Positions 13,801 through 25,800 of a DNA stretch of 64,000 nucleotides are shown here, piece by piece; position 1 is the first letter of the stretch, and every line of letters starts with the position of its first letter. This DNA comes from Mytilus trossulus. Lineage: Eukaryota. The position numbers and the translations under genes were made by a program. The notes beneath the pieces were generated by a model. That model worked only from the letters and a program-made list of their open reading frames with translations, was not told where the DNA came from and did no database searches. Location of the stretch: assembly GCF_036588685.1 (NCBI RefSeq), contig NC_086373.1:868001-932000 (forward strand), written 5' to 3'.

Positions 13801-16800
13801 TGATGATAATACATAACATATATAAAGGTTCAGGATGAACACGGATGCGGCCACTTTCGTTTTTGACAAAAACCATCTGAAAAGTGACATTTTTCAGCAT
13901 ATTTGGTAGATTTTTCATATTTGAGCTTGAATCGGAGCGTTTTTAATGACTAAATAAGTTAAAATCTTTCACATATATTAATTGAATCAAATAAAATAGG
14001 CATTTAAGTGTTTAAAAAGTGGTCAACATCTTCCGTCAGATGAACCTGAAATTTGAGGCCAAAATCGGTCCTTACCGGACCTACTCCTTTATCCTATAAA
14101 AAGTTTTTGTTGCTAGGTGTAAGACCTTTAAATCAAAAATAGATTATCTATAGAAATTATGGTGCATCACAGACCCTCTATCAAAAACATCTTTATTATT
14201 TAACTTACTTTATAAAACAAATTCCTTGAAACATCTGTTTTATTGTTAATACTGTTCAAATATTACATTTGAATCAATATTCTTTTGATATCAATAATAT
14301 ATGTAATTTACAGACAAGTTATATAATTACAAGTACACTAACACTTTTAATAATTATGTAATAACCACTAGATCACAGAAAACAGACTTTCTCTCAAAGG
14401 AGCACAAAGTTATGTAATAATTACTAAATCATAAGAAACAGGTTTCCACTCATATGACAAGAAAAACTGAAAAAATAAATAAAATAAAGATGTTATGATT
14501 CTTTGATCTTGAGTATTTTTTAAATTGATAAGTTCTTAGAAGTATATGATATATACAAAATAATAGCTTTTTTGCTTTTGATTTTGACTTTATCAGCAAG
14601 AATAGCAAGCAGACGTGCAAGGTAGGCCTCATATTCAAACAAATAAAGCCAGTATCAAAACTAAAATGCCATATAAAATGTGGGTCAAAAATTCACACTT
14701 GCAGTGAAAAAAATCAAAAGCTGAACCTACTAAAATGTGTGTAATTTTCAACTCAGCATACTTCAAAACAAACATGGATTTATCTTGAAAGGGTTTATTA
14801 CCTTTTCAGAACTTGATGACTTTTCTAATGCTGCTGGAGTTAACAATTCTGCACTACCCACTCTCCCAACTCCTTGCAGACTACCCTGTAATTGTCTATT
14901 AGCACTTATAGTTTCTGCTGGGGATGCCCTTCTCAAATTATTATCACTTAGTCTATTTATAGTAACAGCATCACCAAATCTTTCTGTCAAATCTTGCGTT
15001 ACATTTTTTGTTCCAAACTGACAACTTGAGTCCGATAAAGAAAACTTTGCAGGTTCACAACTAAAGTCACTTTCTCCTTGAGACAAATCTGATTTTGATT
15101 TAGAAAGAATTGTATATGAGCCTCCATTTGGTAATGATGAAGTGGGCGTTGTGTCCGTGAGAGATATTTCCCCCCGATGTTGTCGTTCTATGTCCTCCAC
15201 CATTGATCCTGAAGACATGATGTGTCTCAATAATGCTGGGACATTCTGTGAGTCCTGTCCCTCTGTAGCCATCTTAGGTGTGTCTGTCACGGACAAAGAT
15301 CTGAATTACAAAACTTTCAAGTCACTTAAAAGAACATTTTACTACTGAATTTCAAAAAGACATAAATCTTATGAAAATAGTATCACTCATTTTGAATAGA
15401 AGTGAGATATGGTATCAAATATAAATCTTTCATATTCATTTCATTGAAAGAATAATATAAAATAATATGCGAAAAATAATTTAAAAGTTTTATATATTCT
15501 CTATATGAATTTCAATGAAATTCATGAAAAGTTAAACCTGACAGTCGTTAGTGTGTCTAACAGATGCCTTGAATTTCCTCATAATTGTTCTTTGCTGAGG
15601 TATCAGTAAATTAAGACAGCACCAGGCTGTTGGTTTTTCTGTTTTTCTATTGTTTTACATTTTGTTATTGCCAGGCCATTTATTGCTTACTGCGCAGTAT
15701 TGGTTTGCTGATTCTGAAAGCCATGTAACGAGTTGTAGTTGTTTTGACTCTTGTCCTTTGGTCTATTATGGATAGTGGTCATATGGTGACCATACACATA
15801 TCTCCTTTTCCTTATTTTTCTATACTAAATGCCTATGAAATGTAGGTGGAGGTTTGCTTGTTTCCACCACTGAAGTTTATATTAAATACCTATGAAATGT
15901 AGGTGGAGGTTTGCTTGTTTCCACCACTGAAGTTTATACTAAATACCTATGAAATGTAGGTGGAGGTTTGCTTGTTTCCACCACTGAAGTTTATATTAAA
16001 TACCTATGAAATGTAGGTGGAGGTTTGCTTGTTTCCACCACTGAAGTTTATACTAAATACCTATGAAATGTAGGTGGAGGTTTGCTTGTTTCCACCACTG
16101 AAGTTTATATTAAATACCTATGAAATGTAGGTGGAGGTTTGCTTGTTTCCACCACTGAAGTTTATATTAAATACCTATGAAATGTAGGTGGAGGTTTGCT
16201 TGTTTCCACCACTGAAGTTTATACTAAATACCTATGAAATGTAGGTGGAGGTTTGCTTGTTTCCACCACTGAAGTTTATACTAAATACCTATGAAATGTA
16301 GGTGGAGGTTTGCTTGTTTCCACCACTGAAGTTTATACTAAATACCTATGAAATGTAGGTGGAGGTTTGCTTGTTTCCACCACTGAAGTTTATACTAAAT
16401 ACCTATGAAATGTAGGTGGAGGTTTGCTTGTTTCCACCACTGATGTTTGACTTCTGATTCTCTGATCCTGGTTCTGTTGCATGCTAGCATTCCTGAACAA
16501 TGTTTCTAATGTCAAAGGCCCTGAAGATGGTCTAGCATTCTGTGTACTATCAACATCTAAAATTACAAAGTGGAAATTATCAAATCTGGTCTAAAAACAA
16601 GCTTTAATAAAAAGACACTTTTAGTGTTTAAGGTTAATATCTATAAATAACTTGCAGGCAAACACAGTATGCTCATTTTTGCACCTGTTCCAAGTCAGGA
16701 GCCTCTGGCCTTTGTTTGTCTTGTATTATTTTTAATTTTAGTTTCTTATTGTATTTCTTAGTGTATAATTTGGAGTTTAATATGGCATTACTTATCACTG

Positions 16801-19800
16801 AACTAGTATATATATTTGTTTAGGTGAAAGCTGAAGGACGCATCCAGGTGCAGGAATTTCTCGCTGCATTGAAGACCTGTTGGTGACCTTCTGCTGTTGT
16901 TTGTTCTATGGTCGGGTTGTTGTCTCATTGACACATTCCCCATTTCCATTCTCAATTTTATCAATTAAGAGTTAAGACATCTGAAAATAACTGATGGAAT
17001 AGCAAGATAGCACTGTAAAAATTAGGTTTATAAATGTTGACACAGATACTAAACGTATTAGTAAACTACTTGTGTCCTTCCCGTGATTGCAGCTGTCAGT
17101 GTTATGTTGACTTAAAAGTAAGGTTATTTATCAGTAAAATACAGAATTTAAAAAAAATACTTTTTGTGTAAATTTTCTATCTGTGTCTTAAAGTTTAGCT
17201 TGTGTCAGAGTTTCATAACAATCCATAAAGGTTAACAAATCTATCATGTTAGAATGTTTTTATGTCATAACAAACCTGAATCCTCTTTTCCTGCTTTAAC
17301 AAGTCTGGGCCGTATGAGATCTGAGGATTTAGTGACTGGTATAAATATATAGGTAACATATGTAGAAACAAACCTGAATCCTCTTTTCCGGCCTTCACAG
17401 GTCTAGGCCGTATGAGATCTGAGGATTTGGTGGCTGAAGCATTAGGATTATCTATGAAAGGCTTTGGATCAGGTTTCTTCTTAGACTGAAACAAGAAGAG
17501 AAAGCAAAATTTTTTTCATGACAAACACATTCACCAAACAATATAATTATGATAATGTGTTTAAGGCCATACATATACCTTTTATTGTTTACTTTTTACA
17601 CATTGTGACTTGGATGGAGAGTTGTCTCATTGGCACTCACACCACATCTTGTTATTTCTTTATACACATTGTTTTTATTGATTAGGTTAATGCTGGCACC
17701 TTTATGGTGTTTTTTTTTTAATTCCAAAATGCAAATTGTTGTCTTGTGTCGCTCACCTTGGTCTATGTTAATATTAAATATTGTACACAGATGGATTCAT
17801 GACAAAATTGTGTTTTGGTGATGGTGATGTGTTTGTTGATCTTACTTTACTAAATATTTTTGCTGCTTTCAATTATCTCTATCTATATAAACAGTAGTTT
17901 CTGTGGAAAATGTTAGTGAAAATCTACAAATTTTGTGAAAATTGTTAAAAATTTACTATGAAGGGCAATTACTCCTTAGGGGGTCAATTGACTATTTTGG
18001 TCATGTTGACTTATTTTAAGTTCTTACTTTGATGTACATTATTGCTGTTTACAGTTTATCTCTATCTATAATAATATTCAAGATAATAACAAAAAAACAG
18101 CAAAATTTCCTCAAAATTACCAATTCAGGGGCAGCAACCTAACAACCAATGATCCATTTCATCTGAAAATTCCAGGGCAGATAGATCTTGACCTGATCAA
18201 CAATTTTACCTCCTGTCAGATTTGCTCTTAATGCTTTGTTTTTTGAGTTATAAGCCAAAAACTGCATTTTACCCCCATATTCTATTTTTAGCCATGGCGG
18301 CCATCTTGGTTGGTTGGCCGAGTTACCGGACACAATTTTTAAACTAGATACCCCAAAGATGATTGTGGCCAAGTTTTAATTAATTTGGCCCAGTAGTTTC
18401 AGAGAAGAAGATTTTTCTAAAAGATTAAGATTTACGAAAAATGATTAAAAATTGACTATAAAGGGCAATAACTCCTACAGTGGTCAACTGACCATTTTGG
18501 TCATGTTGACTTATTTGTAGATCTGACTTTGCTGAACATTTAGTTGTTTACATTTTATCTCTATCTATAATAATATTCAAGATAATAACCAACTAGAGGC
18601 TCTAAAGAGCCTGTGTTGCTCACCTTGGCATATGTGAATTAAAGAAAGGAAGCAGACAGTTCATGACAAGACTGTGTGTTTAGGTGATTGTGATATGTTT
18701 GTACATCTTCCTTTACTGAACATTCTTGCTGCTCACAATTATCTCTATCTATAATGAACTTGTCCGTGTAGTTTCAGTGGAAAATGTAAGTAAAAATTTT
18801 ATGAAAATTGTTAAAAATTGATTATTAAGGACAATAACTTCTTAGGGGGTCAATTGACCATTTTGGTCATTTTGACTTATTTTTTAGTCTTAAATTGCTG
18901 TACATTATTGCTGTTTACAGTTTATATCTATCTATAATAATATTCAAGATAATAACCCAAAACAGCAAAATTTTTCATCTAAATATTTCAGGGCAGATAG
19001 ATCTTGACCAGATACACAATTTTACCCTTTGTCAGATCAGATTTGCTGTAAATGCTTTGGTTTTTGAGTTATAAGCCAAAAACTGCATTTTACCCTTATG
19101 TTCTATTTTTAGCCATGGGGGCCATCTTGGTTGGTTGGCCTGGTCACCGGACACAATTTTTTAACTAGATACCCCAATGATGATTGTGGCAAAGTTTGGT
19201 TAAATTTGGCCCAATAGTTTCAGGAGAAGCTTTTTGTAAAAGTTAACGCCGGACACAGGACGACAGACGCCAAGTGATGAGAAAAGCTCACTTTGCCCTT
19301 TGGGCCAGGTGAGCTAAAAATGTAGGTATGTACAGAATACAAATCAATAATTTCAAGTTTGGTTTAAATTGTATCAGTTGTTATTTTTTTAATTTTGTAA
19401 AGAATATGAGGCAGATGATGGCTGCCAAACAAAGCCAAAAGTTCACATGACTCTTTGAACTTATTAGAGAGCTAATAACATTGTGAAAATTGTCTTCAGG
19501 TTTTTAACGCCATAAAAATTCCTAATCTTACATGCATCCTAAACAACAATTACGTGGCTAATCACTACTCGTTAGATAATTACTGTGTAACAATTAGTGA
19601 ATCACACAAAAACTTTATTTACATTAACTGGCTGTAAAAATACCTCACATGTTGAGAGTTTTAATAGGAAAATATATAGAAAGTCAAAGTATTAATAGTA
19701 TATTCTGTCTATATGACTTAACTCCTCATAGGTATAATCTATGGTTTTGATATGACATTAGAGTACTTTTAATATAACTGAAATTTGGTACTATAATTTT

Positions 19801-22800: not shown

Positions 22801-25800
22801 TGGTGGTATTTTAGTTCCAGAATCTATAAATTTAGGGGTTGGGGGTGTCCGATTCAAAAAACCCCGAAAAATAAAGGAATGAAATTCCGAAGTCCCGAAA
22901 AAGTCGTAACAAAATCCTGTGTTACCTGTAAAAGGTTTTACATTTCCTCAAAAATATCAAATTGGAATATGGGATATTCTTTCAATTTTTAAGGTTAAAG
23001 AAACATGGATAAAAACTAACCCATGCATGTTTCATTTTATTTATATTTTATTTATCTGTACAGAGAAAGATTAAAGTTCGTGAAATAAATACGCAGACAG
23101 GACTGTCCCCTTGCAATGCCCAGTACTTGATTTGTTAAAAGTTGGTGAAACGGAGAAATGAATACGCAGACAGGACTGCCCCCTTCCGAAGACCAGTACT
23201 TCATTTGTCAGTCTGCTTATCGATTTTGGATTGTACTAATGAAGTTATATGCAATACTCAGACTCTGTTCACAAAAAAAACTAGTTTACTAAAACTATTC
23301 CTTCTTTACCTTCAGTGTCGCTTTTCCTTTTTCTACAAGATCCTGTTTTTAACTAGAGATCCATGATTATTATCGTTACTAGGTTAATGTAATCGAGAAA
23401 CATCACCCGTTGAGATGCTGAGTTATATCCAGGAAGAATAGTTTAAAAGGAATGATGACAAGTTATAGAAATTAAGGTTGAGACAGTCAACAACAAATGA
23501 CTGTTATATTTGCCTCAAGGGTAGTTACGGCCTTGGATACTGTAAGACTTAGAAATAAAGGTTACACAAGACTTAAAAATAAAGGTTACACAAGTATTAT
23601 AGGACATTAAGTTAAGCTATTTTTTATAGTATATATACATGTATCTGGGAAACAGGTAAAACAGTGAAAACATAACATTGATCAATGAGCCATGAAAATG
23701 GGGTCATGGTCAGATGAACTTTTTGACAGACATGCACACTTAGCAATCATTCCATACACCACATATAATTCCATATGTTATAGATTCTGAGAAAACAGAC
23801 TTAAAACTGCTTGCACCTGTCTCTGTTGTTTATTGATGGGGTTCATAAGTATGTTGTTCATTTTTTTTTAATATAGATTAGACCGTTTGTTTTAGATAAG
23901 TAATTTTTAGGACCCTCATAGCTAGCTGTTCGTTTTGAGCCAAAGCTTTGTGTTGAAGGCCATACATTCACTTATAATGGATAACTTTTACAAATTGTAA
24001 ATTGGATGCAGAGTTGTATCATTGGCATTCATACCAATCTTCTTATATCTCTTAACCATGAAAACCAAATGCTGACTAGAACAACTGTAACCTTGCATTG
24101 TGAACCAGCACATTAGAAATTTTGAGTGTGGTGGTCTAGCTCAAAGTTTATATTTTCTACTTGATGTTAAATGTGTATCCGTCACCTCCATTTTCTTCCC
24201 TTAAAAAGTATCAGTCAGTTTGATGAGACATACACAAATATACATATGAATATATATATGTCATTTCCCATCTATCTGTTATATTTTCACAAATGTTTGA
24301 ATTCAAAAAGCTGATTTGTATTTCAAACAACATGCACCATTCTTTTGTAAAAGATTTTACTGTGGGGATAATCTCAAATATTTCAGAAAATTTCCTTTTT
24401 TTCTTAATGTTACTTTTTTAAACTGGTTGATGTATACTCTTACAAAATATTACGACTGAGTAAATACAATTGTAAATTATATCCCCCTCTGTAACAACAG
24501 TAATCTTTTTTTAATGGGAATATATAAAAGAGCTGCACATGTTTAACATCAAAGAAATGCTTTATAAAACCATGCTATTATCTTTGATATGCTCCTCATT
24601 AGCAGGAGGTAGTTAAAGAGGAAGATTAAATGTCTGGAGTCATTGAAATCAACAGAAGCTAAAAACAGGAAAAATAAAAGTCCATGGTATAAGAACAGAT
24701 GAGAAATTATTCAAGACAAAACACAACCAAGAAAAATAAATTGGCTTTTTTGCATGTTCCCTTTTCTAGAATAAAATTATTGAATATTCCACGTGTTTTT
24801 AAGACTAAAGATAAAAGTAGATAAACCTTTTAAACATGGATACAACCTTGTTTTTAAAACATTATTTGATGAACCCACTAAAGGTTAATATTAGGATACA
24901 TAAGATAATCTATTATATATACCTATTTATCATCTGTCCAATCCTGGAACATTCATCTTTATCATAGAACCATATACCATATATTGCTAAAAACAAAAGT
25001 TAGATATTTATCATAGAACATGCATATACCATATATTTCTAAAAAATAAAAGGGATTATTACCGATATATGTATGATTAGGGTTATAGAACCATATACCA
25101 TATATTGCTATAATTGTGTTAAATAGGCACTCTTTGTCTATAGTTTATTTCCTAAGGCACAAAAAAAAAACTTAATTCAAGGGCAATAATTCTTACAAGA
25201 AGTTAACTGAGAATTCTCCCCTTGCTGATCTTATTGTAAATCTTGTCCTCCTGATCAAGTTAAGCTGTTTGTAGTTTCTCTCTTTGTTCTATAACGTTTG
25301 CCCAATCATAAATAAAGGGTGAAAAATCACTGACTGCTCAAGGCCAAATTATCTAAGTGGAAATGAAATATGCCAATGCTAATTCAACTGCACATCAAAA
25401 TACAGTTGACGTATCATAAGTTGCTTCCCTTAAACTGACCTAACAAAAAGCTTCAACATGTTAACTGCGAAAATTCCAAAGTCAATAAATTTTGACTGAA
25501 GGGCTATGTGATATAATCTCTCTGAAATGTGATTTGCTTATTCTAAAACAAATGCATATCATATATTATTGCCTTACCATTAGTGGTTCCCCTTAAACTG
25601 ACCTAATCACAAACTTACAAACTATGCTAAAGCTGTCTGTCACAAACATACCATCTGACAGAGGTGAGAGGGAAATAATCTCCCTGGATATCATTGATAT
25701 CTCATTAGTGGTTCACCTCAAACTGACCTAATCACAAACTTTAGTTTTTTAACATAGGCAATTTATAAATTGTAAGTTATCAATCCTACTTAAAGTTAAA

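Follow-up and report, generated by a model that had tools for sequence, protein, structure and literature searches.

A partial, donor-bearing duplicate of a DCP1 exon end in Mytilus trossulus, skipped in assembled RNA

Downstream of exon 6 in the DCP1 gene of a Mytilus mussel lies a 60-nt copy of the end of that exon. We conclude that it is very probably a dead partial duplicate with a silent pseudo-donor, skipped by the assembled RNA and likely decaying without selection. The copy lies in a 64,000-nt stretch of the Mytilus trossulus genome (NC_086373.1, positions 868,001 to 932,000), which we call the window and whose positions we count from its first letter. A first-pass annotation had noted that most differences between exon and copy are synonymous and had offered three readings: a translated microexon behind an ultra-short intron, a formerly coding duplicate, or a patch copied from a diverged allele. 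Under our reading, the element itself matters little. It does mean that a synonymous excess between an exon and an intronic copy is not evidence of translation, since silent differences are contributed by the working exon and its alleles. It means, too, that in polymorphic or hybrid mussels the junction being sought can be mimicked by reads from a different allele that are placed on the copy.

Judged by translation and domain matches, the host of the duplicated exon end is the gene for DCP1, an mRNA-decapping activator, on the minus strand. Its ten exons in the window, exons 2 to 11, translate exactly to residues 41 to 530 of protein P0008 (M. trossulus mRNA-decapping enzyme 1B-like by its NCBI label). 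All ten have an AG acceptor and nine have a GT donor, the tenth ending at the stop. The first coding exon, with the N-terminal 40 codons, was not found within the window, and the label “exon 6” assumes that these codons form one exon. Exon 3 matches Pfam DCP1 (PF06058, the N-terminal DCP1/EVH1 domain; E 1.6e-11). The C-terminal domain mRNA_decap_C (PF16741) matched the exon 10 piece alone at E 0.0002, below the cut-off, and is precomputed on all five full-length homologues. A protein query with the exon 8 frame returned five homologues, three of them named Mytilus DCP1B-like or its locus, and the locus has one match in the genome from which the window comes. Exon 6 (17374-17485, minus strand; 112 nt, phase 0-1) is the working exon and the source of the copy, and exon 7 (16403-16556, minus strand; 154 nt) is its splice partner. 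Both were placed by tblastn, by exact translation to P0008 and by a spliced joint, found in runs X3, X10 and X11.

Several other features of the gene were recorded along the way. Intron 2 (28059-56405) spans 28.3 kb and holds several simple tandem arrays. Introns 6 and 5 contain fragments of high-copy interspersed repeats at 16655-16998 and 17580-17686, respectively, and hundreds to thousands of contigs from RNA-type runs fall on these intronic repeats. Two unnamed proteins, P0012 and P0013, read through the exon 8 donor into the intron (14770-14801, minus strand) and probably stem from contigs of DNA or of unspliced RNA.

On the minus strand, 17335-17276 is identical to 17433-17374 at 53 of 60 bases (88%, offset 98). 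The best of 40 shuffled 60-mers reached 31/60 in a search of about 2 kb on either side, so a chance match is excluded. The whole duplicated unit covers 70 bases, with 17269-17338 copying 17367-17436, donor included. Both units end in CAG|GTTTGTT, and the two donors, the working one upstream (17367-17373, minus strand) and the distal pseudo-donor (17269-17275, minus strand), are identical from -16 to +7. Exon and copy differ at seven exon positions (17433, 17429, 17405, 17400, 17396, 17393 and 17390); five of these differences are synonymous third positions, and two change the amino acid, one being Pro>Leu and the other, at the first base of the copy, Ala>Val. Between exon and copy lies a 38-nt spacer (17336-17373, minus strand), the would-be ultra-short intron, made up of the donor, 28 nt of AT-rich filler and CAG, and ending in ...TTTATACCAG. 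In the alignment, the CAG that precedes the copy falls opposite TCA-G in the exon itself, and for this reason the acceptor-like AG was probably inherited with the duplication. Of two comparisons made for the filler, that with upstream exon 6 gave no match (p = 0.80) and that with the intron beyond the copy a weak one (p = 0.027). A metagenome scan with a 23-nt motif gave 0 matches. The geometry described in the first-pass annotation, including the offset, the shared donor, the AG and the spacer length, is what the sequence contains, and its count of five synonymous and two non-synonymous differences is also correct.

Translation likewise bore out what had been said of the reading frame. As an added cassette, the copy is in frame (phase 1-1) and would contribute 20 residues. 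Use of the distal donor without removal of the spacer shifts the frame and reaches a stop 43-45 nt into exon 7. In place of exon 6, the copy breaks the frame and meets a stop in exon 7; mutually exclusive use with exon 6 was ruled out by this shift.

We aligned six of the 24 listed runs, two of them twice, all as assembled contigs rather than raw reads. The figures of the first round rest on the joints and differences listed, with 51 joints and 125 differences lying beyond them; a second round covered 17000-17575 in runs X2, X3, X4 and X11, with 7 differences and 75 loose ends beyond those listed. None of the listed runs is recorded as RNA, and the RNA label of X3, X10 and X11 is a guess backed by a GT-AG joint over 817 nt. 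In both DNA runs, X2 and X4, exon, spacer and copy are crossed without a break by a single contig (record 14 of X2, spanning 17210-17535, and record 23 of X4, spanning 17126-17550). An unspliced contig of X3 (record 18, depth 2.1) spans 17261-17387 with copy and AG intact. An assembly artefact was ruled out by these three contigs.

The spliced contigs skip the copy (17276-17335, minus strand). The joint 16556|17374, with CT..AC ends on the forward strand, is present in X3, X11 and X10 at depths of 16.3, 26.3 and 24.6 (two studies), that is, in three of the four RNA-type or untyped runs, the fourth, X15, being without exon 7 cover. The presence of the copy is established for X3 alone among X3, X10 and X11, which makes X3 the best control: an intact copy is present, yet both spliced exon 6 alleles (records 19 and 20) end at 17374. 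Splicing at the upstream donor is the one step of the proposed mechanism that the contigs themselves display. In RNA it is this donor that is used, on contig data that leave room for low-level use of the distal donor.

These data bear directly on the proposed microexon, which would be included rarely, across a 38-nt intron, and would add its residues to the linker after the EVH1 domain. Such an exon has its open frame, matching phases and flanking AG and GT in the window, and the pyrimidine content at its acceptor (12/18) lies within the 10-18/18 range of the real acceptors of the gene. Very short introns are also known to be removed elsewhere: three human ones, 43, 49 and 56 nt long, are spliced out (PMC4463651), and animal introns below 30 nt are described in two parasite lineages (PMC13644364). 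Against this stand the contigs and proteins. In the region 17000-17575, the contigs of the four runs contain no joint of any kind, hence none from 17374 to 17335, one of the two junctions that the first-pass annotation had proposed to look for, and no removal of the 38-nt spacer. The 20-residue insert is in none of the ten proteins that cover the site (13 were aligned), including the transcript-derived M. galloprovincialis DCP1, P0011. One haplotype has lost the AG and changed the amino acids of the copy, as detailed below. The other introns of the gene are all at least 297 nt long. Branch points usually lie 18-40 nt from the AG; here, a branch point at that distance would fall very close to the donor, which makes a 38-nt intron unlikely, if still possible. 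The single YTNAY motif in the spacer has its A 7 nt from the AG, and there is no branch motif at a usable distance. We infer that the spacer is likely too short, and without a usable branch point, to be removed as an intron. The data do not support a translated microexon, to which we give only a marginal chance.

One contig appeared to contradict the skipping. The first-pass annotation had named the junction 17276->16556 as a test of inclusion, and at face value this junction is present: X11 record 5 (145 nt, depth 29.2) was placed on 17276-17328 with two differences and then enters exon 7. Its geometry tells a different story. Records 5 and 6 of X11 are branches of equal length, with ends in register and 30-nt shared flanks. 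The exon 7 part of record 5 has eight differences from the window, including the Asn codon found in the M. edulis and M. galloprovincialis proteins, the last of them being 30 nt away from the opposite end. A shared piece at 17397-17431 with a depth of 40.5 gives the best fit to the bin depths (error 0.14, vs 2.1 for the next best placement). Record 5 shares 17397-17426 with record 6, which has the exon's bases at 17400 and 17405; these bases account for the two differences of record 5 from the copy. Record 5 must in turn equal the copy at 17390, 17393 and 17396, as deduced from contig geometry rather than read directly, and it was aligned to the copy and not to the exon because two mismatches beat three. 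X11 record 5 is a second allele of exon 6, with a diverged exon 7, that mimics the junction, and its joint was ruled out as proof of inclusion. The shared piece also has two entries and two exits, and its depth approximates the sum of the two alleles, so there is no room for a third pass through an included copy.

A different use of the element would leave the spacer in place. If the distal donor were chosen at a low rate, exon 6 would be extended to 210 nt, the frame would shift, and the stop in exon 7, 109 nt before the exon 7/8 junction, would send the transcript to nonsense-mediated decay; this could be noise or a way for DCP1 to regulate itself. The identity of the two donors over the interval given above fits this idea, and human 6-16 and CBS offer examples of repeats of this kind whose second donors are used (PMC1557585). 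Decay would moreover hide such an isoform, thinning out a frameshifted transcript beyond the loss of rare forms that contigs already entail. No contig uses the distal donor, and X3 record 18, which crosses the spacer unspliced, continues 15 nt beyond that donor into the intron. The match of one haplotype ends before the donor, which makes a conserved regulatory role unlikely. We consider low-level use of the distal donor improbable. Under the preferred reading of a dead duplicate, the distal donor would likely lose to the first, by analogy with intron 7 of human F7.

The haplotype just mentioned suggests that the copy is decaying. It is represented by one contig, X2 record 15 (depth 7.7), in which 17337 T>A turns the AG into TG, so that the acceptor is lost. 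Within the copy, it encodes Thr>Pro (17333) and Leu>Ile (17318), and its match ends at 17283, leaving 28 unmatched letters at the place expected for the donor. In the same contig, exon 6 differs from the window at only two silent sites. Copy and AG are intact in X2 record 14, X4 record 23 and X3 record 18; across alleles, with X2 record 15 included, neither the splice sites nor the protein sequence of the copy has been kept. Changes private to the copy total one synonymous and four non-synonymous, vs 12 and none in exon 6 (Fisher P = 0.002, a post hoc comparison), and the copy-private changes fit the neutral share of 26-29% synonymous.

The synonymous bias that first drew attention to the copy has another source. 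The copy's base at 17390 occurs in every exon allele listed in the four runs (X2, X3, X4 and X11), which means that the window's exon is the exception there. At 17405, working alleles of X2, X3, X4 and X10 share the copy's base, and contig geometry implies that the second X11 allele does so at 17393 and 17396. The first-pass annotation had suggested comparing the copy's synonymous states with other alleles, and four of the five are indeed found in working exon 6 alleles. The window's copy keeps as its own just one synonymous change (17331) and the two non-synonymous ones, Pro>Leu and the boundary Ala>Val. Variation among the exon 6 alleles themselves comprises 12 sites, every one of them synonymous; 10 are listed and 2 deduced. 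The bias is divergence among working exon alleles, since four of the five silent sites vary among them, and not selection on the copy. The 5/7 ratio, unpolarised, would be unusual if all changes fell on a dead copy (P = 0.016-0.024), but has P = 0.11-0.15 if the working exon also gathers silent changes.

As a side observation, one exon 6 haplotype, found in X2, X3, X4 and X10, has 10 third-position differences from the window in 112 nt and no amino-acid change. Among the differences listed, X2 record 14 and X4 record 23 have none in the copy or spacer, though exon 6 differs at 10 silent sites; a recombination breakpoint would probably explain this unchanged copy beside a diverged exon.

The allelic variation also speaks to how the copy arose. 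It probably originated by local tandem duplication or unequal exchange, and its source would have been an exon 6 allele distinct, at silent positions, from the one now in the window. The earlier suggestion of a patch from a diverged allele comes close to this, given the four of five synonymous states found in working alleles. With the direction of change at 17393 and 17396 unpolarised, the source could be an ancestral allele or a diverged one. A formerly coding duplicate is not needed, as the silent differences map onto variation among working exon alleles. The remaining alternatives of this kind hold either that the copy was once used as an exon and keeps a coding signature, or that gene conversion or collapse gave the second X11 allele its last bases from the copy. 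The unpolarised sites are compatible with both, and that allele does equal the copy at three adjacent silent sites. The states at 17390 and 17405, on the other hand, are matched by ordinary working alleles, the remainder of the copy's differences are mostly non-synonymous, and past use would require the same 38-nt intron. We regard past use or conversion as highly unlikely.

The copy is one of several local boundary duplications in DCP1. Nearby copies, within 1.5 kb, were found at three of the 20 exon ends tested: the exon 4 acceptor (two copies), the exon 6 donor (one) and the exon 7 donor (ten). These copies score 22-25 of 25, and shuffled controls score at most 19/25. At exon 7 (15821-16447, minus strand), a 57-nt tandem array contains 10 extra, near-identical copies of the last ~44 bases of the exon plus its donor; the unit is a multiple of three with an in-frame stop inside, and it is the first donor that the proteins reflect. 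Two degenerate extra copies of the exon 4 acceptor and first codons sit directly upstream of the genuine exon (24980-25114, minus strand). Separately, M. edulis P0003 (CAG2221588.1) departs from all other proteins at residues ~149-160, at the copy's 5' boundary, being two residues shorter, with three residues changed and Ile>Lys beyond; the odd segment may be built on a diverged copy or may be an assembly error.

Some chance of function is left to the intact haplotype, though we think it small. Its copy could be a rare microexon in some tissue or stage, or its donor could feed a decay-targeted isoform that tunes DCP1, which would make this a young exon polymorphic for its splice sites. If rare use were true, it would mean either that a free-living mollusc splices an intron of 38 nt or that a decay factor limits itself through one of its isoforms. 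Among the papers listed by our literature search, none dealt with the DCP1 exon 6 copy or with mussel exon-boundary repeats.

Like metazoan DCP1 (PF06058, PF16741), the host protein has an EVH1-type N-terminal domain and probably the C-terminal domain in ~530 residues; it shows no difference from that family, and the copy is in none of the aligned proteins. MgDCP1 is listed in Rosani et al. 2016 (PMC4793324). Tandem exon duplications, used as cassettes or in mutually exclusive fashion (PMC9013439, PMC8373072), also place an exon copy nearby, flanked by AG and GT. The DCP1 copy differs in that it repeats the 3' 60 of 112 nt only, shifts the frame when swapped, is included in none of the contigs of the three informative runs, and is not maintained as a protein sequence. 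Ultra-short spliceosomal introns of 43-65 nt in human (PMC4463651) and below 30 nt in myxozoans and Dicyema (PMC13644364) resemble the spacer insofar as it is a 38-nt GT-AG segment between coding-like blocks. Unlike the human examples, many of which are G-rich (PMC4463651), the spacer is AT-rich, and its removal was seen in no contig.

A close parallel is a set of repeats that span an exon boundary and repeat its donor: the 37-bp VNTR of human F7 IVS7, LAMIN B2 (100 bp), PDGF intron 4 (81 bp), 6-16 and CBS IVS13 (Borensztajn et al. 2006, PMC1557585). As described there, the first of the identical donors is preferred in F7, LAMIN B2 and PDGF, and later ones are also used in 6-16 and CBS. The DCP1 unit likewise spans an exon-intron boundary and repeats its donor unchanged downstream, and the most upstream donor alone is seen in spliced RNA, on the basis of contigs from three of four runs. 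Unlike the F7 VNTR, the DCP1 exon 6 element has two units, with one diverged copy (88%) of 60 nt of exon and a 28-nt filler, and its distal donor is judged silent from contigs. The array at exon 7 is a close match to the F7-type minisatellite, closer than the exon 6 copy. In its workings the exon 6 copy resembles the F7 case, although with two units it is no minisatellite.
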